Source: Candidatus Nezhaarchaeales archaeon
Lineage (GTDB): Archaea; Thermoproteota; Methanomethylicia; Nezhaarchaeales; WYZ-LMO8
Reading direction: 5' to 3'
Length of the DNA: 64,000 nt
NCBI GenBank assembly: GCA_038887515.1
Contig: JAWAKK010000001.1
Location: forward strand, 710,205 to 774,204
The notes beneath the pieces were generated by a model. It was not told the DNA's origin and made no database searches. It saw nothing but the letters and a program-made list of their open reading frames with translations. Below, piece after piece: positions 12,115-58,689 of the stretch (the stretch's first letter is position 1; every line of letters begins with the position of its first letter). The position numbers and the translations under genes are program-made.

Positions 12115-12211
12115 GGGCCCGTGGCGCAGCCCGGATAGCGCGGCGACAACCGTTAAGGTTGCCGTAAGCCTCCTAAGCCGTTGGTCGTGGGTTCAAATCC
12201 CACCGGGCCCG
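12115..12211 (+). tRNA. Intron-containing tRNA-Arg (anticodon CCU or CCG depending on intron position)
   Basis: 7-bp acceptor stem GGGCCCG/CGGGCCC. D-arm GCGC-AGCCCGGATA-GCGC. T-arm GTGGG-TTCAAAT-CCCAC. 97 nt, about 22 nt too long between the D- and T-arms. Removing nt 34-55 of the gene (genomic 12148-12169) gives a canonical loop CUCCUAA (U33, A37, anticodon CCU). A canonical 37/38 intron would give CCG with U at position 37. No CCA encoded. Confidence 0.7.
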
Positions 12212-12289
12212 TCATCTTCACTGCAAAACTTAAAATACTTCCGTATTAAAGCAAATTGACGTTATAGGAGCGAGGGCTGGTGCTAAGGG

Positions 12290-13180
12290 TTGGATGAGAA
12301 GGAGCCCTTAGTCTATATAGATGGACAACTAGTGCCTAAAAGCTCAGCTAAGATCTCCGTGTTCGATCACGGTTTTCTTTATGGCGACGGCGTTTTTGAG
12401 GGCATCATGGTCTACAACGGCGTTGCCTTCAAGCTCAAAGAGCATGTCGATAGGCTCTACGACTCTGCGAGAGCGCTATGTATAGACATACCCATGAAGG
12501 AGGAGGAAATGATAAAGACCATTGTAAACGTTATTCGCGCGAACGGCTTCAAGAATGCTTACGTAAGGGTAATAGTCACGAGGGGCGTTGGGGACTTAGG
12601 ATTGGATCCTAGAAAGTGCTCTAAACCGACGATAGTCATCATAGTGGACAAGATAAAGCTATTTGATGACGAGGTGTGGAAGAGGGGCATTACTGCTATA
12701 ATATCGTCCGTTAGGCGCGACAGCGTTGACGCTACAACTCATGAAATAAAATCGATGAACTACTTGAATAGCATATTAGCTAAGATAGAGGCCAATGCCG
12801 TGGGAGCCGATGAAGCGATAATGCTTGACGAGAGGGGGTTTGTAGCCGAAGGAACTGGCGAGAACGTATTCATCGTTAAAAATGGAGTGATATATACGCC
12901 TTCAAGGGCGAGCGGTATACTACCGGGTATCACCAGGGCTAGGGTTATAAAGCTCGCTGAAGAGATGGGGTATAAGGTCGTTGAAAGGGATATAACGCCG
13001 GCTGAATTACTAACTGCAGACGAAGTTTTCTTAACGGGTACAGCTGCTGGCATAGTCCCGGTTACCAAGATAGCTGGAAGAACTATAGGAGATGGCAAGC
13101 CAGGGCCGATTACGAGAAAGCTCATAGAGAAGTTTAGAGAGCTTAGAGAAGACCCTTCAGAAGGAGTCAAAATTTTTTGA
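12290..13180 (+). CDS. ilvE: Branched-chain amino acid aminotransferase (class IV PLP enzyme)
   Basis: Class IV aminotransferase motifs (VFDHGFLYGDGVFEGI, EVFLTGTAAGIVPV). TTG start; stop codon 3 nt upstream excludes extension. Confidence 0.85.
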   Translation: MDEKEPLVYIDGQLVPKSSAKISVFDHGFLYGDGVFEGIMVYNGVAFKLKEHVDRLYDSARALCIDIPMKEEEMIKTIVNVIRANGFKNAYVRVIVTRGVGDLGLDPRKCSKPTIVIIVDKIKLFDDEVWKRGITAIISSVRRDSVDATTHEIKSMNYLNSILAKIEANAVGADEAIMLDERGFVAEGTGENVFIVKNGVIYTPSRASGILPGITRARVIKLAEEMGYKVVERDITPAELLTADEVFLTGTAAGIVPVTKIAGRTIGDGKPGPITRKLIEKFRELREDPSEGVKIF

Positions 13181-13205
13181 GCAATAAAGAGAGTAAAGAA
13201 GTTTG

Positions 13206-13916
13206 TTAAGTAAATACTTCAGTACGCTGGTAGAAGGGCTGAACGGAAGCTACAACCTCTATCGGAAACGGATGCTCCGCTCTCAGGTTCTGGACTACCT
13301 CCTCGCCAACACTAACTAGAGCAAAAACACCAGCCACGTTAGCCTTCAACTTCTTAACTATATTTATGAGAGCTTGAATGGTACTTCCTGTCCTTATGAG
13401 GTCGTCAACTATTAGAACGTCATCCCTACTAGTTATCGAAGTCTTAGAAACGTAGAGCGAAGTTACGTAGGGGCCAGTCGGGTACGACTCTTCTATATAG
13501 TCCCTGACGCCCATTTCCTTAGTCCTCTTAGCTACTACCAAGGGTACTTCAAGTAAAAGAGATATGGAAGTGGCTATGGGGACTCCATTGACGGCAGGAG
13601 CCAATACCTTTGTTATCCTCTTACCCGCAAACTTCATCATCACGTAATGCGATGCCCTCATGAGGATTAAAGGGTCGTTGACTATGTTAGTTGTGTCAAC
13701 ATAACCGTACGGATCCACGGATATCTTTTCATATATTACTTGGTCAAACTGCTCAATCTTATCTAAGGAGTCCCAAAGCTTCTTGGCAGTATCATCCCCT
13801 GGAAGAACGTCCCCCTTAACGTACCTACAGAGGACTGTTTCGGGAATTCCGGTTCTTCTGGCAAGTTCACTATAAGAATAAAACTTTTTTAATAACCTCA
13901 ACCTTTCAATGGTCAT
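13206..13916 (-). CDS. HTH domain fused to phosphoribosyltransferase (PRTase) domain; putative PRPP/nucleotide-responsive regulator
   Basis: N-terminal HTH (YSELARRTGIPETVLCRYV). C-terminal type I PRTase PRPP-binding motif VLIVDDLIRTGSTI. Same architecture as GfcR-type archaeal regulators. Confidence 0.65.
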   Translation of the reverse strand: MTIERLRLLKKFYSYSELARRTGIPETVLCRYVKGDVLPGDDTAKKLWDSLDKIEQFDQVIYEKISVDPYGYVDTTNIVNDPLILMRASHYVMMKFAGKRITKVLAPAVNGVPIATSISLLLEVPLVVAKRTKEMGVRDYIEESYPTGPYVTSLYVSKTSITSRDDVLIVDDLIRTGSTIQALINIVKKLKANVAGVFALVSVGEEVVQNLRAEHPFPIEVVASVQPFYQRTEVFT

Positions 13917-14378
13917 GAACCTAAACCTTAAGCTGGCCTCGCGCCTTCTCGTAAGTACCTGCCCCCAAGTAATGTTCGACTTTATGGTCTTCTACGTAAT
14001 ACTTGATATTTATAAAATGCTTTTTAATTTTTACCCTTAAAAGCCCTAATTTACATAAAAAGTATCGGTACTGATGTGCTTCCCCACATAAAACTTTATG
14101 TAACATGAAGCGAGGGGGCCCGCTTTTAGGTCGACAATGTAAAGGTTTGAATACCTACGTGCAATCGTTTCAACGCACGATTTTCAAGTAATGTAAAGAG
14201 CTTTGACGTGATGTTCATTTATTTGAAGTAAAGTTTATTGGGATCCTTCTAAAGGAGTTTTCCCTATGGGAGGGAGACAAAGGACGACGCTACTGGAGAT
14301 TTTTGAAGAGAAGAAGAGTGGAACCGAGAAAAAAGCTAAAAAGTAGAAAGCCGTGAAAAATAAAAATGCGAAGTGTAA

Positions 14379-14398
14379 GGGGGGGGGGGGGGGGGGGG
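14379..14398. repeat. G20 homopolymer tract
   Basis: Twenty consecutive G at 14379-14398, read directly. Lies 31 nt upstream of the ATG at 14429. Overlapped only by an implausible poly-Gly N-terminal extension of the track ORF. Confidence 0.95.
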
Positions 14399-14428
14399 TC
14401 AACCGGAATTAATGAAAGGAGTAAGGGA

Positions 14429-15415
14429 ATGTCTCAGAAGCACAACGCCGTGGCAGAGAAGCTCTCAGAATATTGTAGATCTAATAAAGCTATAACCTCT
14501 TTCCTACAAGAAATGGTCCTAAGAGGTATTAGCGAAATAAGACCTATCATATCGAGTAACGTAGAATACCCCGAACTTTCAGAATTCTTTGGCAAAGAAG
14601 CCAGTAAGATGCTTGAAGTGATGATTAGGGATGGCATACTTAAAGGCGTGGTCGTTGATAGGATATTGATGTGCCCCGAGTGCAACGCAATAACAGTAAG
14701 GACGCGCTACTTATGTCCTAGCTGTAAGAGCTTTAACGTTGAGCGTGTCTCGCTTATAGAGCACATAATTTGCGGCTTTATTGGATCAAACAGGCTATTC
14801 AAGAAAGGTGAAAGCGAAGTGTGTCCACGCTGTGGCCGTACCTTAAAGAGGGCTCAAGTGGACTGGAGGATCATAGGTATGACCTTTGAATGCTACGATT
14901 GCGGACTCATGTTTGATGAGCCCAAGATAGCCCACAAGTGTCTACCAAACGGTCACGAATTCGACCCAACGAATTCGAAGTACGAAGCCGTTTACAAGTA
15001 CGTGATCAAAGACGAGGTCGTGAAAATGGTACAAGAAGGCTTCCTGGTAACTTCTACCATTCATCAAGTCCTCGCATCGTCAGGATACGAAGTCCATGTC
15101 GACGGGGCCGTAAGAGGCCTTTCTGGCGTCGACCATAGATTTAACGTCGTAGGATCAAAGGACGGAAAGTTGACAGTAATCGAAACTAGCAACTTGCAAT
15201 CGGGCAGAGAGCAGTTAATGCAGATGGTCGCTAAGGTCATAGACACCAAACCTTCGCGAGCACTATTAGTAGTGCTTTCTCAAAGCGAAGAGGGTTTAAG
15301 AGAGCTTGAATCTCTTGCCTCATCGTTAAACATACGACTTATTGCGGTCAAAAACTTAATGGAAATAGGGGAAGCTATCCGGCGGATATTAAGTGAGGAA
15401 AGCGAAAAATCTTAA
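14429..15415 (+). CDS. Multi-zinc-ribbon protein, candidate regulator of the adjacent type IV pilus locus
   Basis: Start moved to ATG 14429 (GGAG about 10 nt upstream), dropping the poly-Gly extension. Three CxxC pairs (CPECN...CPSCK, CPRCG, CYDCG) follow an N-terminal helical region. C-terminal ~130 aa of unknown fold. No confident family assignment. Confidence 0.5.
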   Translation: MSQKHNAVAEKLSEYCRSNKAITSFLQEMVLRGISEIRPIISSNVEYPELSEFFGKEASKMLEVMIRDGILKGVVVDRILMCPECNAITVRTRYLCPSCKSFNVERVSLIEHIICGFIGSNRLFKKGESEVCPRCGRTLKRAQVDWRIIGMTFECYDCGLMFDEPKIAHKCLPNGHEFDPTNSKYEAVYKYVIKDEVVKMVQEGFLVTSTIHQVLASSGYEVHVDGAVRGLSGVDHRFNVVGSKDGKLTVIETSNLQSGREQLMQMVAKVIDTKPSRALLVVLSQSEEGLRELESLASSLNIRLIAVKNLMEIGEAIRRILSEESEKS

Positions 15416-15419
15416 GAAC

Positions 15420-16280
15420 CTACAGTAGCTGCGTAAAGACTAAGATCAGTACCGCCAACATCAATGCCGAGTGCCTCAACCCAGTTAACATAGACCCCTT
15501 AGATATCTTTCCTATTGCAAGCCCAGCAGCTATGGCCTCTATTACCCCGCAATAGAAAAATATGGCTTTGTAGAAATCGATGCCCCTAAATCCCTTAACT
15601 ATCTCTCCAAAACCCTCCGTAAGCGTTAGGGGGGTTACTAGCTGAGTCATCAGTATGTAGACCGTTAACAGGTACACCACAAAGCTTACGTACATGATCC
15701 AGGTGTAGGACTTGAGCTCTGTCTCCTTCTCAGTTTCGTACGATTCCAAAGCTGAGTGTAATGTGAGGAAGGATTGAAGAATGTTTAGGGCTTTAGCTCC
15801 ACTCCTCATAACCTCTACGAGTAGTATAGATACCTTATCCATGAGCGGGGTCCTAGCCATCTTAGCTATGTCAATTATCGAAATTTCAGGGTCGAACCCT
15901 AACATCATCTTGGCGACTACTCTATTCAACTCCTTTGAAAGTGGACCGTAACGGTTTTTAGCGCACTCTTTAAGGGCAATCGTCAATGGAACGCCAGTCC
16001 TCACGTAATCTACTAAGTCCCTGATGAATTGGGAGACGCCTTTCTCAATCCCTCTCTTCCATCTATGCTCAAGGTCTTCAACCACTCCAACTATAAGGCA
16101 CAAGACCAAGATCCCTACACAGAATATAGAGTTGACCAGTTGGCTAGTAGGTATGAATATTGGAGGGGCGGGAGTGTAAAGCTTCAGGTAGAATGGCAAG
16201 TAGAATATCGCCACGGCAGATGCAATGGCCACAAAGTAAGTAGCCGCCTTCTGGCGGGGAGAGAAGAAGCGCCCGTTCAT
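15420..16280 (-). CDS. Type II secretion system F-domain membrane protein (TadC/FlaJ-like, second half)
   Basis: Polytopic membrane protein with one T2SSF-like domain. Its ATG lies one codon after an in-frame TAA that ends the upstream T2SSF gene (TAA-GCC-ATG). Confidence 0.6.
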   Translation of the reverse strand: MNGRFFSPRQKAATYFVAIASAVAIFYLPFYLKLYTPAPPIFIPTSQLVNSIFCVGILVLCLIVGVVEDLEHRWKRGIEKGVSQFIRDLVDYVRTGVPLTIALKECAKNRYGPLSKELNRVVAKMMLGFDPEISIIDIAKMARTPLMDKVSILLVEVMRSGAKALNILQSFLTLHSALESYETEKETELKSYTWIMYVSFVVYLLTVYILMTQLVTPLTLTEGFGEIVKGFRGIDFYKAIFFYCGVIEAIAAGLAIGKISKGSMLTGLRHSALMLAVLILVFTQLL

Positions 16281-16283
16281 GGC

Positions 16284-17174
16284 TTACACCGACGAAAGCG
16301 CCTTGTCCATCAATACCAACACTATGGCCGCGAGTACCGGCATCAATACGAATGCTGTAAGCATAGTTACTGAGACCGGGTCAACGCCGAAGAGTTGTTG
16401 GCCGAGCATGGCCACTATGATCAGTATGGTTATGATAATTATTGGACCTACTATAACCAAGGCTACGTACATCTCGGATAGATATCCCATAGCCGTCAGG
16501 ACCTTGCGTAGAGTTGATCTCCTGAACTCTACGAGACTTTTCGCGTAGTCCATTAAGTACCCCGATACGTCTCCGCTCGAGCCTATGACGGTTGAGAGTC
16601 CTTCCAATAGTGTCTTCAAATGAATCGAGGGGGACCTATTGGCTGCTTCGTATAGGGCTTTTATGGGATCTACGTTGAATATAGCCATCTGTCTAAGTAT
16701 AAAGCAGAACGTGTTTTTAATGGCTTTCTCGCTCTCGATCTCCACGGTCCTCCTGATCAAGGTCTCGATAGTTGTTCCAGCTGAAGCCAGCGCAGCCATG
16801 TACTCCACAGTATATGGGAGGGCTCTGTCTATTCTAAAAGCCAAGTTCTTGGACCTTACATAAGGGTAGTATGCGCCTACCGTAAAAGTGACCGAGAAGC
16901 CTAGGATAGCCCATACAACTACGAGCACCAGCACATAGAGCATGGGTAGGCCCAGCACTAGGGCGTTGACTATAAAGGAAACAATGGCCGAGGCTACGCA
17001 GACCATTATGCTCATGAAGACGACTGCTGAGGCGTAAGCCGGAAATGGAATGCCCATCTGAGCCTTAAGGTACCTCTCCCTTACGAAGGAGATGAATGGA
17101 GAATTTGAGCTAGGCTTAAAGAGCCTGTAACTGAATGAGGATATGGCTTCGAGGAGACCGTTTCCCTTCGACAT
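16284..17174 (-). CDS. Type II secretion system F-domain membrane protein (TadB/FlaJ-like, first half)
   Basis: 296 aa. Cytoplasmic T2SSF-like domain (LPYTVEYMAALASAGTTIETLIRR) flanked by TM segments. Follows the ATPase gene after a 6-nt gap. Confidence 0.6.
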   Translation of the reverse strand: MSKGNGLLEAISSFSYRLFKPSSNSPFISFVRERYLKAQMGIPFPAYASAVVFMSIMVCVASAIVSFIVNALVLGLPMLYVLVLVVVWAILGFSVTFTVGAYYPYVRSKNLAFRIDRALPYTVEYMAALASAGTTIETLIRRTVEIESEKAIKNTFCFILRQMAIFNVDPIKALYEAANRSPSIHLKTLLEGLSTVIGSSGDVSGYLMDYAKSLVEFRRSTLRKVLTAMGYLSEMYVALVIVGPIIIITILIIVAMLGQQLFGVDPVSVTMLTAFVLMPVLAAIVLVLMDKALSSV

Positions 17175-17182
17175 GGCCTCAC

Positions 17183-18703
17183 CTAAGGGGTAGCTACCAA
17201 CTTTAGCAACTCACTCCTAGCCCTCTCGTAGGTTTCTCGAGGCTTTAAGTAGTAGCTTCTAATAACCTTGGCTACGTCGTCGTGCCTCGATAGGTCCTTC
17301 TTCAACATCCATTCAAGCACAACCTTCCTGTTCTCTAGTTCACTCGTAACGTTATCAAAACCTAGCCTCTTGACTATGATGCTGCCATCTGCTATCAACC
17401 TAGTGAAGGAATCGGTAAGCGGATCCCAACGATATATGGGATTTATCATGATTTCCCCGCTTCTAGGGTCTATCCCCGTGACCTCGTTTACCTCTATAAC
17501 CCTTCTAACCGTAACCCCTCTCACTTTTCTTCTAGCAACTAGTATTATGGTTTCAATCATTGGTATAAGTTCTCTAGGAACATTCATAGGCTTAGACTCG
17601 AGCCTCCTTATGGCCGCCTCTATGTTTTCAGCGTGTATGGTGCATAGACCTCCGTGGCCTGTAGCCACGGCTTGAAAGAGAGCGTAGGCTTCTTCGCCCC
17701 TGACTTCGCCGACGATTATGTAGTCGGGCCTTTGCCTTAAAGCGGACTTTAATAGGTCGAACGCCGATATCTCTGGGGCTCCATCGGTCGTGCTGGGCCT
17801 AGTAACTAAAGGGACCCAGTTCTCATGTGGGAGCATTAGCTCCCTCGTTTCCTCTATAGTTATTACCTTGGCTTCAGGCCTTATCAGGGCGGCTATAGCG
17901 TTTAGGAGAGTAGTCTTGCCGGACGCAGTTGCACCGCAAATAAGCATAGACCTCATTTGCTCGACCATAATCCATAGGTAAGCTGCTACTTCGCTCGACA
18001 AAGTACCTAACTTTATTAGGTCTATTATAGTAAACTTTTCAGGCCTATACTTCCTAATGGTAAAGGTCGACCCCCTCTTAGAGACCACGTCTAGGGTTAG
18101 GTGGACTCGATGTCCTTCAGGTAGCACGCCATCGATGACCGGCCTTGCAATGGAAACCTGCTGCTTAGCCTTAAACGACAGGGTCATGACGAAGGAGTTT
18201 AGTTCCTCCTCACTTTCAAAGGATACGTTCGTTGGAAGCTCCTCGTACTTTACGTGCCAAACGTATATTGGGATCCCGACGCCAGCGCAGCTTATATCTT
18301 CGATGTTGGGATCCCTAACTATGCCGTCTATCTTTCCGTAGCCCAGCAGGTCCCTAACTATGTAATAAAGTATCTTATCTAGGGCTTCTGAGGCCACCTT
18401 GAAGCCGTACTTCTTAATAACTTTCTTAGTTGCTTGGACTATGAAGGACCTCGCCTTTTCCGGGTCTTCTACGTCCTCTACGTCTACGTCAACCGACTCC
18501 TTGATGAACTCCTTGACCCTACGTACTACCTCCACCTCGTCCTGTAGAAGCGTTGGCTCTACGACTTCGTACCTAAGCTTCCCGACGGGATCCATTACTA
18601 TAGCTATGTGGCAGAAGGGGGGATTCACGGCGTAGAAGTCTCTTAAACGAGCTAGCTCAACTTGTTCTAAGCCCTTAGAGTCTCCAGCCCGCTTAATACT
18701 CAT
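17183..18703 (-). CDS. Type IV pilus/archaellum-family secretion ATPase (FlaI/CpaF/VirB11 superfamily)
   Basis: Walker A GATASGKTT, Asp/His boxes and typical length of 506 aa. Confidence 0.85.
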   Translation of the reverse strand: MSIKRAGDSKGLEQVELARLRDFYAVNPPFCHIAIVMDPVGKLRYEVVEPTLLQDEVEVVRRVKEFIKESVDVDVEDVEDPEKARSFIVQATKKVIKKYGFKVASEALDKILYYIVRDLLGYGKIDGIVRDPNIEDISCAGVGIPIYVWHVKYEELPTNVSFESEEELNSFVMTLSFKAKQQVSIARPVIDGVLPEGHRVHLTLDVVSKRGSTFTIRKYRPEKFTIIDLIKLGTLSSEVAAYLWIMVEQMRSMLICGATASGKTTLLNAIAALIRPEAKVITIEETRELMLPHENWVPLVTRPSTTDGAPEISAFDLLKSALRQRPDYIIVGEVRGEEAYALFQAVATGHGGLCTIHAENIEAAIRRLESKPMNVPRELIPMIETIILVARRKVRGVTVRRVIEVNEVTGIDPRSGEIMINPIYRWDPLTDSFTRLIADGSIIVKRLGFDNVTSELENRKVVLEWMLKKDLSRHDDVAKVIRSYYLKPRETYERARSELLKLVATP

Positions 18704-18794
18704 CCTAAAGCGCCTAGAAAAATCTAGAAGGCGAAGCTCAAAACTTTTCCGGAGCGAGTAAAGCCTAGCAGACGAGTTCTTTTAACGATAGATT

Positions 18795-18808
18795 TATTTA
18801 AATGGTAT
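18795..18808 (+). promoter_or_regulatory. Putative BRE/TATA element for the pilin gene
   Basis: TTTATTTAAAT about 30-40 nt upstream of ATG 18837, in the divergent intergenic region between the ATPase operon and the pilin genes. Confidence 0.3.
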
Positions 18809-18836
18809 CGCAAATTATTATCGTTCGGTGAACACC

Positions 18837-19265
18837 ATGAAGAAGGTTAAAGGGGTCTCCCCCATAGTAGCAGTACTATTACTCATAGTCATAGCTGTAG
18901 CGGCAGCTGCAATGACGTATGGCTTCGTAATGGGCTTCATAGGTGGAGCCGCAACAACTACAACAACGACGCAAGCAATGATAAGGGTAGAAGCAGTAGA
19001 TGCCACTACTGGTACTGATGCCACAGTATACGTTAGGAACATAGGCTCCATCCCTGTAACTGTCGACTTCATATATGTGTACCACGCTAATGGAACCCTC
19101 ATGAGTACACAACGGCTTTCGACTTCGATCACGATTCCTCCGGGTAATGTAGGTATAGTTTATGTCGATGGCCTAGATTTAAGTGGAGGGGTTACGTACT
19201 ACGTCAAGGTAACGACCAAGGAAGGAGCTATCGCGACATCGGAGCCCTTTAAAGTTAAAAGCTAG
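18837..19265 (+). CDS. Archaeal type IV pilin (class III signal peptide, DUF361-like N-terminus) with one beta-domain
   Basis: N-terminus MKKVKGVSPIVAVLLLIVIAVAAA matches the K-G-(V/I)SP-hydrophobic class III pattern. C-terminal ~90-aa domain is homologous to the repeats of the next gene. Start set to ATG 18837 rather than the track's GTG 18828. Confidence 0.7.
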   Translation: MKKVKGVSPIVAVLLLIVIAVAAAAMTYGFVMGFIGGAATTTTTTQAMIRVEAVDATTGTDATVYVRNIGSIPVTVDFIYVYHANGTLMSTQRLSTSITIPPGNVGIVYVDGLDLSGGVTYYVKVTTKEGAIATSEPFKVKS

Positions 19266-19411
19266 CCCGTAGTAGTGTGAGTAATACTATACGCAGTTAC
19301 TATAGTGTTTCGGGTCTAGCTTTTTTAACATACAATCAATTTTTCCTCCTTGTTATGTTTACCACAATAGTTATACCTAAAGCTGTTATAAAGAAGGATT
19401 TAGCGACGCCT

Positions 19412-20707
19412 ATGAGTGGAGGCAAGGGGATCTCTCCGATAGCTTCTACGCTATTGCTAATAATGGTTGTAGTTGCTGCTACGGTAACCACGTACAACTT
19501 AGTTATTGGACTTGTAGGAGTAACCGCTACATCGCCTCTACGATCTGTAATAAGGGTGGACGAAGTTAGCATCTCTGGTAGCGAGCTTACTGTTTACGTC
19601 AGGAACCTTGGTCCGGCTCCAATGACGCTAGATTCGGTATACGTGTACTCTGTTGACGGGGTACTAGTCGGGCGCGTTCATATTAACCCCAAAACGATAG
19701 ATGCGGGAGAGGTTGAGGCTATTACGGGCATACCAATTGGTTACTTGAAGGAGGGGGGTGTCTACTACATCAAGGTAGCTACAATGGAGGGAGCTATCGC
19801 GTCTTCCCAAGCATTTAAAGTCGGATTAGCTAAATCAGCTAAAGCTATAATAGTGATAGAAAGATTGGAGACCGAGCCAGCTACATTGAACACATTCAAT
19901 GCTACACTGTACGTCAAGAATGCGGGCGACGTCCCAGTGACGATAGACGAAGTACGCGTATACTACTCGTTATCGAAGAAGACTTTACTGGAAAGCATTG
20001 ACATTGCAAAGAGATTAAATCCTGGAGAGACTGTGAGGATCGTTATTGACAAAATACCATACGACATAGAGCGGCAGAGGCCTAGCTACGAGATTGAAGT
20101 AACAACTATAGAAGGAGTTATAGCAACTACGAAGGCTATGGTACTAGCAAGAGAAATGTTGGTAGAAACAGGATTAAGTGCGGAAGGATTCAACATAGAC
20201 GCCTCCATATACGTTATAAATTATGGCGCTGCCCCAGCAATAATAGATAAAGTACAAGTATACATCGATGGAGAGTTGGACAGTATCGTAAACCTTGGGA
20301 ACTTGTCGCTAGGTGTGACGAGTTCAACAACCATTAATTTCAACGTTACTATAGATCCAAGCAAGTCCTACTCCTTCAAGATTGTAGGAAGTGATGAGGC
20401 TTTAACGTCGTGGCGAGCAATAGTGGTAGCTGAAGCGAGTGCAACACCGATAAACGATCGCAGTTACAGCGTTACTGTTTACGTTAGGAACGTCGGCTCC
20501 ACCCCCGTAACGATTTACGGCTTGTACATACAATCTGAACGAGGGGACTTAATAGTGCCCCTGATAGATGTAGGGGAGGTGATAAAGCCAAAAGAGATTA
20601 AAGAGATAATTAATCCAATTACCCTAACGAATGGGACATACTACATATTCGTGTTTACTGATGAGCCTTGGTTTTTAGAAGCGAAGACGAGGCTAGAATT
20701 GGTATGA
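19412..20707 (+). CDS. Modular type IV pilin/adhesin with class III signal peptide and four tandem beta-domain repeats
   Basis: Internal ATG 19412 gives MSGGKGISPIASTLLLIMVVVAA, a class III signal. Four ~90-aa repeats share an xxYVRNxGxxPVTID-like core (TVYVRNLGPAPMTLD, TLYVKNAGDVPVTID, SIYVINYGAAPAIID, TVYVRNVGSTPVTIY). The 45-aa extension in the track ORF is probably not translated. Confidence 0.65.
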   Translation: MSGGKGISPIASTLLLIMVVVAATVTTYNLVIGLVGVTATSPLRSVIRVDEVSISGSELTVYVRNLGPAPMTLDSVYVYSVDGVLVGRVHINPKTIDAGEVEAITGIPIGYLKEGGVYYIKVATMEGAIASSQAFKVGLAKSAKAIIVIERLETEPATLNTFNATLYVKNAGDVPVTIDEVRVYYSLSKKTLLESIDIAKRLNPGETVRIVIDKIPYDIERQRPSYEIEVTTIEGVIATTKAMVLAREMLVETGLSAEGFNIDASIYVINYGAAPAIIDKVQVYIDGELDSIVNLGNLSLGVTSSTTINFNVTIDPSKSYSFKIVGSDEALTSWRAIVVAEASATPINDRSYSVTVYVRNVGSTPVTIYGLYIQSERGDLIVPLIDVGEVIKPKEIKEIINPITLTNGTYYIFVFTDEPWFLEAKTRLELV

Positions 20708-51953: not shown

Positions 51954-52204
51954 AAAACGTCAGATAAAAGGATAGTAATAGCGAATACTTGAAACTTATC
52001 CATAGCATCTAGAGACGCTAAATGCGGTTTAGCAATATGCTAAGAATTAAAGGTTGATAGACAATTCAATACCGATGAGATTTTGGACCACTTACATCCT
52101 AAAAGTGTATTATTTCGCAATTTTATGTCACAATTTATATAATCTGTACTAAAAAATATTTAAATTTCGTAAATTTTCGTGTTAACAACGAGGATGTAAG
52201 AAGA

Positions 52205-53077
52205 ATGATCAAGAAAGTTGTTATTACTGCCGCGGGTCTTGGTACGAGGCTGCTACCAATAACTAAAGAGATACCCAAAGAGATGCTACCAATATGTCTT
52301 GATAATAGTAACGGTCCTACTCTTAAGCCTCTCCTTCAAGCGCTTTTTGAACAACTGTATTCGTTCGGATTTAGAGACTTTTGTTTTGTTGTTGGTAGAG
52401 GGAAGAGGGCTATTGAGGATCATTTTACTCCGGATTGGAATTTCGTCAATAGTTTAAGAAGTAAGGGTAAATTAAACATTGCCGAGGAATTGGAAAATTT
52501 CTATAGGATGATAGAAAGCTCAAGGATACTATTCGTTAATCAACCCGAGCCAAAGGGGTTTGGGCATGCAGTTTTAATGGCTAAACCTTTTGTGGGGAAA
52601 GAGCCCTTCATGGTTTGTGCTGGAGATACTTACATAATTTCAACTAATAACGACTTCTTAAAGAGGTTGGTGTCGGCTTTTTCAGATGATGTTACAGCGG
52701 CAATTCTTCTTCAGAGGGTTGAAGATCCTTGGAATTATGGCGTTGCTCTTGTTAAGCCGAGTAATAGCTTATTATTAGATATAATAGAGGTTGTCGAAAA
52801 ACCCAAAGCTCCTAAGTCAAATATAGCAATAATGCCATTCTACATATTCAAGCCGGAAATAATAGGGGTATTAGAGAATTTGGAGCCAGGCGTTGGCAAT
52901 GAATACCAGCTTACAGATGCCATTCAAAAGATAATTATGATGGGTCGAAGAGTTGTTGGTGTCTTACTTGAAGAAGACGAATTGAGGCTCGATATAGGAA
53001 CGCCAAAGACATACATCGAGGCTTTAAAAGTGTCTTACGAATATCATCGTAGGAGGAATTATAATGTCACATATTAA
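52205..53077 (+). CDS. Sugar-1-phosphate nucleotidyltransferase (GalU/RmlA-like)
   Basis: N-terminal VVITAAGLGTRLLPITKEIPKEMLPI nucleotidyltransferase signature. 290 aa. Confidence 0.8.
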   Translation: MIKKVVITAAGLGTRLLPITKEIPKEMLPICLDNSNGPTLKPLLQALFEQLYSFGFRDFCFVVGRGKRAIEDHFTPDWNFVNSLRSKGKLNIAEELENFYRMIESSRILFVNQPEPKGFGHAVLMAKPFVGKEPFMVCAGDTYIISTNNDFLKRLVSAFSDDVTAAILLQRVEDPWNYGVALVKPSNSLLLDIIEVVEKPKAPKSNIAIMPFYIFKPEIIGVLENLEPGVGNEYQLTDAIQKIIMMGRRVVGVLLEEDELRLDIGTPKTYIEALKVSYEYHRRRNYNVTY

Positions 53078-54068
53078 ATTCGAAGTACGACTACCTTCAA
53101 ATCTTGAGGAGATGGTAAAAGATAAAACATTTCTAATAACCGGGGGGGCTGGTTTTATTGGAAGCTGGCTTACAGAAACTTTAGTTGAACTAGGAGCAAA
53201 AGTAACCGTTTTGGATAATCTCTCATCAGGAAGTATCGAGAACATTAAACATTTGTTTAATTGCGGGAACTTCGACTTTATCGAAGCCGATGTTTCAAAC
53301 TACAAAAACAATAGAATTTATGATTACATAGTTCACGCAGCAAGCATCCCAGCGCCTGATATGTACGTTACGAGACCCGTTGAGACAATGTTACCAAATA
53401 GCATTGGTACGTTAAACATCTTAGAAGTCTCAAGAAAGTATGGAAGTCGAGTCTTATTTCTATCGACTTCTGAAGTTTATGGAGATGCGAGAGTTGTCCC
53501 AACCCCAGAAAACTACTGGGGATATGTAAATCCTATAGGTATAAGGTCTTGTTATGACGAATCCAAGCGCTTTGGCGAAGCATTATGTATGGCATATTTT
53601 AGACAGTATGGTATTGACGTTAGAATTGCCCGAATTTTTAATACGTACGGGCCAAGGCTTGACCCAAATGCTTGTTATGCAAGGGTTATTTCTAAATTTA
53701 TAATCCAAGCCTTAAGAGGTGATCCTATAACAATTTATGGTGATGGAAAACAAACTCGAAGTTTCCTGTATATAACTGATGCGATTGAGGCACTAGTTAA
53801 GTTCCTTTTAATAGATGGGCTAAGTGGAGAAGTTGTTAATATAGGCAGTCCGCACGAAATAACGATATTAGAGTTGGCTAACATTATAAAAAGACTCACC
53901 GGTTCTAATTCTCCAATAGAGTTTCATCCACCAAGACCTGATGATCCAAAAAGAAGGTGCCCCGATATTTCTAAGGCACAGAGAATTTTGAACTGGAACC
54001 CCAAAGTTTCATTACACGATGGACTCGAACTTACCATTGCATGGTTTAAGAAGGTGATAATAATATGA
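53064..54068 (+). CDS. NAD-dependent sugar-nucleotide SDR, UDP-glucuronate decarboxylase (UXS)-like
   Basis: Extended SDR. GGAGFIGS Rossmann motif. YxxxK catalytic region. ARIFNTYGPRL motif characteristic of UXS/ArnA-type decarboxylases. Confidence 0.7.
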   Translation: MSHIKFEVRLPSNLEEMVKDKTFLITGGAGFIGSWLTETLVELGAKVTVLDNLSSGSIENIKHLFNCGNFDFIEADVSNYKNNRIYDYIVHAASIPAPDMYVTRPVETMLPNSIGTLNILEVSRKYGSRVLFLSTSEVYGDARVVPTPENYWGYVNPIGIRSCYDESKRFGEALCMAYFRQYGIDVRIARIFNTYGPRLDPNACYARVISKFIIQALRGDPITIYGDGKQTRSFLYITDAIEALVKFLLIDGLSGEVVNIGSPHEITILELANIIKRLTGSNSPIEFHPPRPDDPKRRCPDISKAQRILNWNPKVSLHDGLELTIAWFKKVIII

Positions 54069-55423
54069 CTGTCATCTCGTACATAGGCATGGGATATGTA
54101 GGACTGGCGAGCGCTGTATGCTTGGCATATAAAGGCTTTAGGGTAATAGGTGTAGACATAGATCCTTTAAAAGTTAAAATTATAAACTCGGGTAAGCCGC
54201 CATACTATGAGCCTAAAGTTGAAGAACTTTTAAAAGATGTGTTAAAAAAAGACCTTTTTTATTGCACCACCGATTACATCAAAGCGGTGCAAGGTTCAAA
54301 TATAACGTTTATAGCTGTTGGCACTCCAAGCAATCCGGATGGAAGCATAAATCTTGATCAAATAAAAAGGGCTGCGAAATACATTGGAGAGGCGCTAAGA
54401 GACAAACATGAATATCACTTAGTAGTTGTCAGAAGCACCGTTGTCCCTGGAACTACGGAGAAAGTGGTTAAACCCATAATTGAGCAAGCTTCAGGAAAGA
54501 GTTGTGGTAGTGAGTTCGGCTTGTGCTTCAACCCAGAATTCCTTAGAGAAGGTTCGGCTGTGGATGATACCTTTAATCCTGATAGGGTAGTTATAGGTGA
54601 ATTTGATGAACGGTCTGGCAATACGCTTGAAAAACTATATAGGGACTTCCACGGAGATGAAGTACCTGTAATCATGAGAACTAATATAGTTAATGCTGAG
54701 CTCATAAAATATGCTAATAATGCATTTTTAGCGATGAAGGTTAGTTTCATCAACATGATAGCAAACCTATGCCAAAAGCTTCCAGGAGCTGACGTTGAGG
54801 TTGTAGCCAAGGGTATAGGTTTAGATAAGAGAATAGGACCTCTCTTTCTTAAAGCCGGGGCTGGATGGGGGGGAAGCTGTTTTCCAAAAGACCTTAAAGC
54901 ATTACTTCATTTCGGCTTAAAGAGTGGCGTAGAACTACCGCTCGTTGAATCAACGTTGAAGGTCAATGAAAATCAACCCTATAAACTCATTGAATTAGCC
55001 AAAAGTCTTATTGGAACCTTGCGTGGAAGGAGGGTTTCCATACTTGGGCTAGCTTTTAAAGCTGGAACGGACGATATGAGAGAGGCCGTTTCAATAAAGG
55101 TTGTTGAGAGACTTTTAGACGAGGGTGCCAACTTAATAGTATACGATCCTAAAGCCATGGAAAACGCTAAGAAAATCTTCGGTAGTCGTATTGAATATGC
55201 TAATAACATTGAAGAGTGCTTAAAGGGATCTGAGTGCGCAATAATAGTTACAGAGTGGGATGAATTTCGTAAGTTAACACCCGAGCGTTACATAGAGCTA
55301 ATGAAAATTCCAGCAATCGTAGATGGGAGAAGAATTTACGATCCACGCGAGTTCTCACGTAAACTTAGATTTGCAGCTATAGGGTATGGACAAGAAACTT
55401 CGGCAACAATTCATTATTCATAA
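54065..55423 (+). CDS. ugd: UDP-glucose 6-dehydrogenase
   Basis: N-terminal GMGYVGL Rossmann motif. Catalytic GGSCFPKD motif. 452 aa. Overlaps the upstream gene by 4 nt. Confidence 0.85.
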   Translation: MTVISYIGMGYVGLASAVCLAYKGFRVIGVDIDPLKVKIINSGKPPYYEPKVEELLKDVLKKDLFYCTTDYIKAVQGSNITFIAVGTPSNPDGSINLDQIKRAAKYIGEALRDKHEYHLVVVRSTVVPGTTEKVVKPIIEQASGKSCGSEFGLCFNPEFLREGSAVDDTFNPDRVVIGEFDERSGNTLEKLYRDFHGDEVPVIMRTNIVNAELIKYANNAFLAMKVSFINMIANLCQKLPGADVEVVAKGIGLDKRIGPLFLKAGAGWGGSCFPKDLKALLHFGLKSGVELPLVESTLKVNENQPYKLIELAKSLIGTLRGRRVSILGLAFKAGTDDMREAVSIKVVERLLDEGANLIVYDPKAMENAKKIFGSRIEYANNIEECLKGSECAIIVTEWDEFRKLTPERYIELMKIPAIVDGRRIYDPREFSRKLRFAAIGYGQETSATIHYS

Positions 55424-55843
55424 CCAAATATGATAATTTCATTTTTACTACGAGAAGGAATTTTTAAAATACATTTTTAAGTTTGTAAAATCTTCTAAAA
55501 AGTTCTGTCAAAAACAAGATGAAGTAAAAGCAGGATATACTCCAGTATTTAATAAATATTGGAGTTTTAGAATTAGACGAATGTTGAGGCGTTTACCTAA
55601 ATCTCCTTTAAGTTCGCAAGGACTTACCGTTTTATAACTTATAATTATTTATTACCTTATAGCTATGCTACTGATGTACCATTACCTGATAGTCAAGTTC
55701 CAGTGGTTGAGATCACTTTGGATGAGCCCTCATGATATTAAATTATAGCTTTAATTGTTGAATTAAGAATGCTGGCTAATCATCAACGTACTCGCCTATT
55801 TTACGAATACTAATACTTAAGCTTACTTTGATTAAAAGCAAGG

Positions 55844-55877
55844 TAAGATATAAGTAGTGTTAAGATATAAGTAGTGT
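55844..55877. repeat. Perfect 17-nt tandem duplication (TAAGATATAAGTAGTGT x2)
   Basis: Read directly. Two adjacent identical 17-mers in the AT-rich intergenic region upstream of the disrupted GT2 gene. Confidence 0.85.
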
Positions 55878-55894
55878 AAGGATGCAACTGTTAA

Positions 55895-57039
55895 GGTAAG
55901 TCAAGGAAGGGGGATTTTGATATAAAAACTGCCATTCTAGTGCCTACATATTGCGGTGCAGATGTATTACCATACTTACTTGAGAGCTTAATAAAAAGTG
56001 GATCTATGCCAGACATGATATTATTTGTTGTAAAGGCTTGTCCTATATCTGAGCTTGAAGGAATTAAAGTTATAGAGGATTTCGTTGAAAAAACATAAAA
56101 GGTCAAACAAAAGCATCTATCATTAAATATAAAGGTCCTTACGGATTAGTTAGACAAATATTGATTGGATTAAGGACTTTATACAAATTAAATTATGACA
56201 TCGTTATATTCTTAGATGATGATTCGTACATTGTTTCTAATAAGTTTGTTGAATTACATGAAAAATGGTACGAAGTAAATGAAGTTGGTGGAGTAGCAGG
56301 TTGTATAATAGACGTATGGAAGCGTGGCGAGGACTTTGTACAAATAGCTGGAAATGTGTCTATACCTCCCAAAAGGCTTTACTTGTGGAGAGAGCCAGCT
56401 ATTAAGATTCTCAATAGGTTTATACCTCAAACATATTTTACAAAGGGAGGCTATGTTGCAGTATGTGGAAACGATACTTATCATCTTAAGAGGGGTGCAA
56501 GGCATGTATTCTCTTTACTGGGCGGCGGATCAAACATGTCAATAAGGTTAGCAGCACTTAGTTGCTTTCTGAAAGGGGATAATATCGCAAAACTTTTACC
56601 TAATACTCCAATCGCTATGAGGTACGAACAGATACTAGCTTATCACATAGTTAAAAGAGGTTACGTAATAGTTAAAGATTACAACATAAAGACTTACCAC
56701 ATATTCAGAGAAGGAGGCGAGACAAGAGCTCCTAGGAATTATCGAAGGAGTACAATTACTGCAACGGATGATTTCCTGTACTTTTACATGAAGCATTCGT
56801 ATCCATGTGATTTTTCATTTATACATAAAATTTTGGCTGTTATACAGAGGCTATATCGATCCATAGTTGTAGAACAAAAGAAAAGTAGTGATATCGAACT
56901 ACTTCTTGCCCGTCTTTTTGGTCACTTATTTGGAAATAGTGTCGGAATATGGTGGAGCCTATCGTCTAACAAAGAGTACGTATATCAATTATTTAGGAGG
57001 TATGAAAGTTTTATGAAGGGTATACTTAAGGAATCGTAA
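55895..57039 (+). pseudogene. Family 2 glycosyltransferase disrupted by a -1 frameshift in an A6 run and lacking an ATG start
   Basis: N-terminal fragment ...DIKTAILVPTYCGADVLPYLLESL...FVEKT*. Reading resumes in the +1 frame as KNIKGQTKASIIKYKGPYGLVRQILIGL...IVIFLDDDSY (DxD motif). One extra A in the A6 run at 56088-56093 would give a continuous ORF. The expected start codon position reads ATA. Confidence 0.65.
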
Positions 57040-57447
57040 TTATAATGATAGGCTTTACAACCATAAAGTAACTTATGGACCACTTTATTAATCGCATGTT
57101 TTCTCTGAAGTACTTCACCAAGAACGTTGAGATTTAAGGTCTAAGCATGCGGTTCGCCCATAAAGATCGGAAGAAGCCGAGAATAAATGCCAGTCCAAGC
57201 CTTTACCATCTTGGCTCATCTACTCTCCGGTAAAGGTCTTGTAACTAAAATCGAAAGGAACAAGTTTAGAAGTTTAGCCTATACTAATAAGCCAAAGATA
57301 TTTACGCTCTTCTTCTGAAGATTACCTCCTTCGTCGGCTTGACGTAAACAATTTCCAGACACCATACGTGATAAGCCTTATTACTTGTTTCCGATAACTT
57401 TTTTGGACGAATAGTCATTGAAGTTAAGCTCGGAGGTCGTTATTTAA

Positions 57448-58689
57448 TTGAAGAAAGCCGTTGTTTCTCACCACTTTTGGGATAGACCTGGTGGTGGGCA
57501 ACTCGTATGTAGTGCTGTGGCTTACGCTTTAAAGGTCCTCGGTTTTAACCCTGTTTTAACGTCTATTTCGTTGTTTGAGAGGGATAAGTATATTGATTGG
57601 TTCGGAATAAACTTGCAGGACTATGAAGTTATACCGTTTTTGAAATTTAGGTTGAGGGCATTTGGGATATACATGAGGCTCCTCGTTTGGGTGCCAATGA
57701 AAAAAGCCATAGAAAAGCTTAACCCGGATATAGTCTTTACTGACGAATGCACCTATAGGCCTGTAGAGAAGCTTGTCGATCGCGAGAAAACCCTATTTGT
57801 TGAGTACATACATTTTCCAATTGAAGTCTCGATTCTAGAGGAGTATAAAGGTAGTGGCTTGTACTATGGTGAGGATCCTTACCTATTAGAGCGCTATAGT
57901 AGGTTCCCCATGAACATATATTGGTGGGGGTACGCGAAGCTTCTCCCCCTCTTTCTACGCAGGAACCCGTTTGAAGTGGCTTCATTGGTGCTGACGAATT
58001 CTAAGTGGACAGCCGAAATCGCAGGAAAGATCTACGGAGAGAGACCTCAGGTGCTGAATCCACCTATAGCGCCAAACGTCGAAATAGCCCAAGAACCTAA
58101 GGTGTTCGAAGAGAGGGAGAACGCCATAGTTATGCTTGGACGCTTCTCCGAAGAGAAGAGGTACCACTGGGTTGTGGAGGAGGTTATGCCGAGACTTCGC
58201 AGAGAGCTAGGAGGTGTAAAGCTGTACGTCTTTGGTGGTGCTAGGACCAAGACCAGTATGATGTATCTAAGCGAAGTAGGAGAAAGGGCTACAAGGAGAG
58301 GCTTAAAAGTGTCTAATAACATTAAAGACTTGGCTGACATATATCTGGTACCTGACGCTCCCAGAAAAGTCATAAACAATGTAATGGACAAGGCGAAGGT
58401 CTTTTTACATGCAACCATAAACGAGCACTGGGGCATAGCGCCAGCCGAAGCCATGGCTAGAGGGTTACCAATAGTAGTTCACAAATCGGGTGGAACTTGG
58501 AGCGATCTTGCTGTCGAAGGTGAGTACGGGCTGGGGTATAATAATATCGAAGAGGTCATAGAATTGCTGTCTAAACTTCTAAATGACGAAAACGTGTGGA
58601 GACATTACTCGAAAAGGTCTATCCTTAAAGCAGGAGATTTAACAATAATTAAGTTCATAGACAGGCTCAAAGGGTTGATTAAAGCTTGA
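57448..58689 (+). CDS. Family 4 (GT-B, retaining) glycosyltransferase
   Basis: C-terminal EX7E-type motif region (NEHWGIAPAEAMARGLPIVVHKSGG). 413 aa. TTG start. Confidence 0.75.
   Translation: MKKAVVSHHFWDRPGGGQLVCSAVAYALKVLGFNPVLTSISLFERDKYIDWFGINLQDYEVIPFLKFRLRAFGIYMRLLVWVPMKKAIEKLNPDIVFTDECTYRPVEKLVDREKTLFVEYIHFPIEVSILEEYKGSGLYYGEDPYLLERYSRFPMNIYWWGYAKLLPLFLRRNPFEVASLVLTNSKWTAEIAGKIYGERPQVLNPPIAPNVEIAQEPKVFEERENAIVMLGRFSEEKRYHWVVEEVMPRLRRELGGVKLYVFGGARTKTSMMYLSEVGERATRRGLKVSNNIKDLADIYLVPDAPRKVINNVMDKAKVFLHATINEHWGIAPAEAMARGLPIVVHKSGGTWSDLAVEGEYGLGYNNIEEVIELLSKLLNDENVWRHYSKRSILKAGDLTIIKFIDRLKGLIKA

Follow-up and report, generated by a model that had tools for sequence, protein, structure and literature searches.

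The window, the whole 64-kb stretch of DNA that was analysed, comes from a metagenome-assembled genome (MAG) of a Candidatus Nezhaarchaeales member, an uncultivated hot-spring archaeon. At positions 14379–14398 of the plus strand the assembly reads exactly 20 G (C20 on the minus strand), and this tract is internal to a 776-kb contig. The last G lies 31 nt before ATG 14429, with 30 nt between them, and this ATG is the start annotated by NCBI for the downstream gene (P0001, MEM4576581.1, locus tag QW701_03850), so that the run and its spacing stand as initially annotated. The downstream gene (14429–15415, plus strand) encodes a TackOD1-domain protein of 328 aa. Convergent with it are type IV pilus assembly genes recognized by Pfam, which encode two T2SSF-family membrane proteins and a T2SSE-family ATPase (15420–18703, minus strand), and beyond these lie two pilin-like genes with Pilin_N matches in Pfam (18828–20707, plus strand). 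On the other side of the tract lie a micro-ORF that is unannotated in the window (14266–14346, plus strand) and a divergent gene for an HTH-phosphoribosyltransferase (PRTase; 13206–13985, minus strand). The site was compared with five Nezhaarchaeales-like lineages (L003, L004/L005, L006 and L007, with TackOD1 proteins 57–86% identical to that of the window) and with 60 TackOD1 loci that are more distant, taken from representative genomes in GTDB. The convergent arrangement of the TackOD1 and pilus assembly genes is the same in L003, L004 and L006.

The downstream gene is a member of the TackOD1 family (PF18551/arCOG06883). Its product matches PF18551 with an E-value of 2e-33 and a score of 115.8 bits, against a gathering cut-off of 32, over model positions 13–187 of 188. 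TackOD1 has been described as a Cys-rich output domain of archaeal response regulators that is found in the type IV pilus loci of thaumarchaea, with a function that was termed obscure (PMC5847659). The location of the gene within a type IV pilus locus, both in the window and in its relatives, concurs with this description. The window protein shares PF18551, the Cys-rich motifs and the pilus locus with the TackOD1/arCOG06883 proteins of TACK-archaeal pilus loci; it differs from them in standing alone, without a receiver, and in carrying a C-terminal PD-(D/E)xK-like fold. In the AF2 model (pLDDT 84), N-terminal helices are followed by a Cys-rich zinc-ribbon module and then by this fold, and Foldseek matches for the C-terminal domain (residues ∼195–328) include AF1548 (1y88, E 1e-5) and the nuclease domains of Can2, Card1 and Cdn1. 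Searches of MEM4576581.1 for a receiver domain or a DNA-binding HTH gave no match; of the initial description as a pilus-locus regulator-like gene, the association with the pilus locus is borne out, whereas ‘regulator-like’ is justified only in part, as a loose term. The acidic residue that usually comes first in the PD-(D/E)xK motif is not conserved across nine TackOD1 homologues, so that the C-terminal domain may be a non-catalytic nucleic-acid-binding module.

The interval between the long ORFs on either side of the tract measures 512 nt, with a GC content of 41% when the tract is included and 39% when it is left out, compared with 45% for the window. It had been taken for a 450-nt AT-rich intergenic region; it is in fact longer and only mildly AT-rich, and it is not empty, as both a 5′ extension of the PRTase gene and a 26-codon ORF lie inside it. 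The extension occupies 13917–13985 on the minus strand, where a conserved N-terminal sequence, LTRRREASLRFRF, is encoded 5′ of the first ATG. NCBI starts the 259-aa PRTase at an ATA codon, and the upstream frame is altered by an indel of 1 nt in comparison with L004, L006 and L007. The PRTase gene probably begins near 13985. An RNA element was also considered for the conserved block upstream of the PRTase ATG and was set aside, the N-terminal coding extension of the NCBI 259-aa call giving a better fit. Because the tract lies ∼390 nt from the PRTase start, it is unlikely to affect this gene.

The micro-ORF encodes MGGRQRTTLLEIFEEKKSGTEKKAKK followed by a stop codon, and it lies directly upstream of TackOD1 in all five lineages (at position 631 in L003, 4747 in L004, 201 in L005, 2466 in L006 and 2801 in L007). 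Its versions are 26–30 codons long and lysine-rich, and they follow the pattern MGGRQ[RK]TTLLE[IL]FEEKKS... Over 18 aligned codons, the variable columns at codon positions 1, 2 and 3 number 3, 1 and 13, respectively, which gives the alignment a clear coding signature. The ORF matches no family in Pfam or NCBIfam, and the Bathyarchaeia loci yielded no counterpart. The archaeal TATA box is, as a general rule, centred ∼26 nt upstream of the start site, and a conserved BRE/TATA-like element, GTAAAGTTTATT (14228–14239, plus strand), whose core TAAAGTTTAT is invariant in the alignments of the five lineages, lies 26–28 nt 5′ of the micro-ORF ATG. Since this spacing fits the usual archaeal TATA-to-start distance, it suggests that the micro-ORF transcript is leaderless and could run on through the tract.

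The tract itself is a strong outlier in this assembly, far beyond chance. The longest other homopolymer in the 64-kb window is 7 nt, and the number of G runs drops ∼4-fold with each extra base. An iid model, a Markov model and empirical extrapolation put the expectation for runs of 20 G or more between 1e-8 and 3e-8. The length of 20 is the assembled one, and the true length, or the distribution of lengths, may differ from it. With regard to the composition of the window elsewhere, a low-GC island (35–40%, compared with 45% for the window) at 52000–57500 encodes a nucleotidyl transferase, an NAD-dependent epimerase/dehydratase, a UDP-glucose/GDP-mannose dehydrogenase and a GT4 glycosyltransferase. 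This island looks like a surface-glycan cluster, possibly acquired horizontally.

The sequence on either side of the tract is continuous with that of the relatives. The order PRTase, micro-ORF, TackOD1, T2SSF, T2SSF, T2SSE is identical in L003, L004 and L006, and the L007 sequence, which covers PRTase, micro-ORF and TackOD1 only, agrees with it. The window matches its closest relative, L003 (TackOD1 86% identical), in a single collinear alignment of 5.3 kb at 85% identity. In the pairwise alignment of the junction, the two flanks of the tract pair with adjacent bases of L003 (AAGTATAAGAG directly followed by CTTGCCAGATTAAT in L003; AAGTGTAAG, G19 and then TCAACCGGAATTAAT in the window), with no bases lost or duplicated; on the right, the junction bases are CTTGCC in L003 and TCAACC after G19 in the window. 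A chimeric join at the poly-G is ruled out, because the genes keep their order and the sequences on the two sides of the tract pair with neighbouring bases of L003, with homology at the base level running through the tract. The flanks are thus not discontinuous, and the run is not confined to a contig end, as might be expected of an artefact. The tract can be addressed by unique anchors, AAATGCGAAGTGTAA on the left and TCAACCGGAATTAATGAAAGG on the right.

A second assembly gives a partial view of the same site. The Logan assembly of SRR21619495 holds two contigs that are 100% identical to the window, spanning 12115–14393 and 14425–20280. The first of these (L001) terminates inside the tract, at GTAA followed by 15 G, and the next restarts at 14425, 26 nt beyond the tract. 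SRR21619495 is possibly the MAG's own data, in which case it represents a second assembler and not necessarily a second sample. We take the result to mean that the reads carry at least 15 G at this site, with multi-read k-mer support reaching G15 from the left flank, because spurious poly-G tails start at scattered positions and the junction here is reproducible. The hole between the contigs (14394–14424) is 31 nt, which equals the Logan k, and short reads do not cross the tract cleanly. Failed sequencing of the run, real heterogeneity in its length, or the two together can produce such a break, and it is what a genuine long G run would cause. The hole is also asymmetric, reaching 26 nt into unique sequence on the right and 0 nt on the left; sequencing that fails on one strand, or another variable position close to 14424, could account for this. 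At its other end, L001 stops exactly at 12115, the edge of an ARAGORN call (12115–12211, plus strand) of a 97-nt ‘tRNA-???’ with a four-base anticodon, where Rfam confirms no tRNA; this may be an intron-containing tRNA common to other community members, or a false call.

The tract has no counterpart in any of the five related lineages. L003 has GAG at the place of the tract, and L004/L005, L006 and L007 (TackOD1 57–60% identical) have longer, unrelated spacers. The spacer between the micro-ORF and TackOD1 varies in both length and sequence (82 nt in the window, 120 nt in L003 and ∼165 nt in L004), and a comparable upstream run is absent from 60 of the 60 more distant TackOD1 loci. A comparison of tract length among related strains had been proposed initially; as none of the five lineages has a tract at all, the comparison indicates instead that the tract is not a conserved regulatory element. 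Nor, to judge from the same alignments, is it an ancestral control element, and the repeat is not kept at the orthologous site as it would be in a conserved contingency locus. A second strain with the site was sought in several ways, and none turned up in these collections: exact-protein look-ups with three flanking genes returned the NCBI MAG and one Logan run only, the 90%-identity clusters contained no further members, a scan of JGI metagenomes with both flanks and a gap of 0–30 nt gave no match, and a scan of GTDB representatives gave no relative with TackOD1 above 57% identity.

The TackOD1 homologues studied have no upstream homopolymer, with one exception. The loci fetched, 412 kb in all, contain a single other homopolymer of at least 9 nt, a G9 in L063 (2964–2972). 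There, a T6G9 run lies at the extreme 5′ end of a TackOD1 homologue encoded by a Bathyarchaeia MAG, with the predicted start TTG GGG GGG GGA. The a-priori chance of such a placement is ∼3%, and the run may be a curiosity that arose by coincidence. A general link of G/C runs to TackOD1 starts was considered and is not supported, with 2 of 26 runs of at least 6 nt found near starts compared with 0.8 expected, which is no enrichment.

The 82-nt spacer in which the tract sits (14347–14428, plus strand), between the micro-ORF stop and the TackOD1 start, probably holds, to judge from its sequence and alignments, the core promoter or 5′ leader of TackOD1. It contains TATA-like and Shine-Dalgarno-like motifs, and the locus thus has a long simple repeat within a putative promoter or leader, as contingency loci do. 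An A-rich TATA-like candidate, AAAAATAAAAAT (14356–14367, plus strand), aligns to GAGAAAAACAAAAAT of L003 (MAFFT); if this element is used, transcription would start ∼25 nt downstream, inside the G tract. Another TATA-like candidate, AAGTGTAA (14371–14378, plus strand), abuts the tract directly and is, in the pairwise alignment, the counterpart of the TATA-like AAGTATAA of L003; with this element, the start would fall just 3′ of the tract. A Shine-Dalgarno-like GGAG (14418–14421, plus strand) stands 7 nt upstream of ATG 14429, with GAGG motifs at the equivalent place in L003, and suggests that the TackOD1 mRNA has a leader. Alternatively, TackOD1 may be read through from the micro-ORF promoter, which would make the tract intercistronic RNA. 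In any of these scenarios, the tract would lie within about −30 to +35 of the predicted start site, or in the leader.

Features at the level of RNA were also searched for. Rfam, at E-values up to 10, gave no match in 13850–14500, and the predicted RNA fold across the tract region is less stable than those of shuffled sequences (z = +2.45), with no competing hairpin; a conserved RNA element or hairpin involving the tract was rejected on these grounds. A scan for bacterial-type promoters and terminators, which is not applicable to archaea, gave no match. An upstream start codon, ATG 14366, is in frame with ATG 14429 in silico only if the tract length n equals 2 mod 3. Tract lengths of 17, 20 and 23 would give an in-frame N-terminal extension, 18 and 21 a short uORF, and 19 and 22 a uORF that overlaps the real start. 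We give this frame-toggling variant little weight, because ATG 14366 has no L003 counterpart and no ribosome-binding motif.

The explanation that we favour, with a probability of roughly 60%, is that the tract is a real, recent and strain-specific repeat of ∼20 bp, of uncertain length and prone to slippage, which perturbs the TackOD1 promoter or leader and is not an established control element. According to this explanation, a poly(G).poly(C) repeat of roughly 20 bp would have arisen recently in the chromosome of one Nezhaarchaeales lineage. Replication slippage most likely created the tract and maintains it, in a lineage that is expected to have no MutSL to repair indel loops, and the length of the tract would drift quickly. 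The repeat would lie in the TackOD1 core promoter, where it would separate the TATA-like element from the start site, or else in RNA, as part of the 5′ leader or of an intercistronic stretch, and its most likely effect would be a length-dependent, probably negative, perturbation of TackOD1 expression. The cause could be a block of high GC content at the point of promoter melting, or a G-quadruplex formed by the non-template strand of the DNA or by the leader of the mRNA.

The expected instability of the tract draws on work in other archaea. Hyperthermophilic archaea lack MutSL, and frameshifts in mononucleotide runs dominate the mutation spectrum of Sulfolobus (PMC4471258). A 20-nt run should therefore be very unstable, and the hypermutability proposed in the initial annotation is a reasonable expectation. 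The comparison with the frameshift hotspots of Sulfolobus acidocaldarius (PMC4471258) holds in that both concern hyperthermophiles without MutSL, where single-base indels in homopolymers are prominent; it differs in that the S. acidocaldarius runs are short, intragenic and seen as mutational targets, whereas the tract in the window is 20 nt long and non-coding. The GAG at the L003 site offers no seed G run, and simple slippage would need an unseen intermediate, which counts against this origin. With one occurrence in one population, a neutral transient mutation and a selected one cannot be separated.

The main alternatives concern whether the tract exists as assembled, whether its structure matters rather than its length, and whether it is a working switch. 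The tract could be an artefact, in reality absent or much shorter and produced by dark-cycle poly-G, library preparation or the assembler, or, in a milder form, a longer run that collapsed in a k = 21 de Bruijn graph. It is known from a single MAG, with no independent strain to confirm it, the Logan assembly cannot cross it, and an assembled length of 20–21 is about what a k = 21 graph would make of a longer run, for which reason the number 20 should be treated as uncertain. The argument that 20 = k − 1 proves a collapsed run is retained only as a caveat, as the collapsed length depends on the graph definition of the assembler; in SPAdes, the vertices are k-mers, and a collapsed run would be 21 and not 20. 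Poly-G tails, however, leave contigs that end as left flank + G...G or as C...C + right flank, and do not yield two collinear flanks around a G20, and two different assemblers put at least 15 G after the same GTAA. The instrument may also be relevant, since the HiSeq 4000 is a four-colour instrument and is free of the dark-G artefact. The Tengchong hot-spring MAG project, a possible source of the assembly, used the HiSeq 4000 and SPAdes with k = 21 to 127 (PMC11094006); if it is the source, dark-cycle poly-G does not apply. The artefact alternative raised in the initial annotation is thus weakened, with gene order and flank homology continuous across the site and a second assembler reaching 15 G at the same position in a 100%-identical population, and we regard it as distinctly unlikely. 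Instead, the tract might act through its structure and not through changes in length, as a constitutive G-quadruplex that forms in non-template DNA or in the RNA leader and modulates TackOD1 transcription or translation at high temperature. The potential noted initially is supported by the ViennaRNA G4 model, in which G20 provides the four runs of at least three G needed for an intramolecular quadruplex and forms four layers with single-G loops; this structure is predicted to be stable at 80°C (−11.8 kcal/mol), where no canonical structure forms. Surveys have detected G4 motifs in archaea (PMC7565180; PMC12873603), and the window resembles the sequences described there in that a G-rich tract able to form a G4 lies close to a promoter or 5′ UTR. 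In contrast to those sequences, it has a pure homopolymer and not a G3+N1-7 motif, it is unconserved and its G4 is a prediction. The prediction is thermodynamic only, a pure homopolymer would be an unusual and mutationally unstable G4 element, and none of L003–L007 has a G4-capable sequence at the site, so that there is no sign of selection for one. We therefore consider a constitutive G4 element highly improbable.

It is also conceivable that the tract is a true contingency locus, where slippage toggles or tunes TackOD1 expression, and thereby pilus behaviour, within the population. Changes in length may act on TATA-to-start geometry or leader length, or, if the transcript includes ATG 14366, through toggling of its frame. 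Phase variation by such repeats has well-known bacterial parallels, including poly-C in the fim2/fim3 promoters of Bordetella pertussis, the poly-G that separates the −35 and −10 elements of porA in Neisseria meningitidis and the numerous poly-G tracts found in Campylobacter jejuni. As in these systems, a long G/C homopolymer lies 5′ of a gene linked to a surface appendage, in or near the core promoter, where slipped-strand mispairing is expected; repeats in promoters or leaders classically occupy such a position, and the genes nearby specify a surface appendage. The mod-3 frame relation of ATG 14366, the Logan break inside the tract with its 31-nt hole, which is compatible with length heterogeneity, and the position of the L063 G9 could all be read in the same direction. 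The window differs from the bacterial systems in that its host is archaeal, with TATA/BRE-type promoters, the adjacent gene is an accessory one and not a pilin or known activator, and the tract, known from sequence alone, is unconserved among relatives and is the one such tract in 64 kb, whereas users of this strategy usually carry many. Moreover, G/C runs are not enriched near TackOD1 starts, the contig break would follow equally well from Illumina sequencing that fails on a long run of G, and ATG 14429, preceded by GGAG, is usable in every phase, while ATG 14366 lacks the support noted above. We consider a true contingency locus unlikely. The more specific proposal of a working slippage-driven TackOD1 switch, acting on a TATA/BRE-type promoter or on the leader start codon ATG 14366 and with the L063 G9 as a second independent instance, seems to us slightly less probable still.

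The tract has consequences of different reach depending on what it does. If it is only a transient mutation, it marks a tract length in a MAG that should not be trusted and a site where short-read assemblies break. Bacteria are well known to vary their surface structures by repeat-driven phase variation, a strategy that is hardly documented in archaea; a hypermutable homopolymer beside a surface-structure locus is familiar from bacteria, and an archaeal case would be new. If the tract varies in length within the population and tunes a gene of the pilus locus, the strategy would work with archaeal promoters and at high temperature. Should it be TackOD1 that the tract tunes, this would provide the first functional handle on the TackOD1 proteins.
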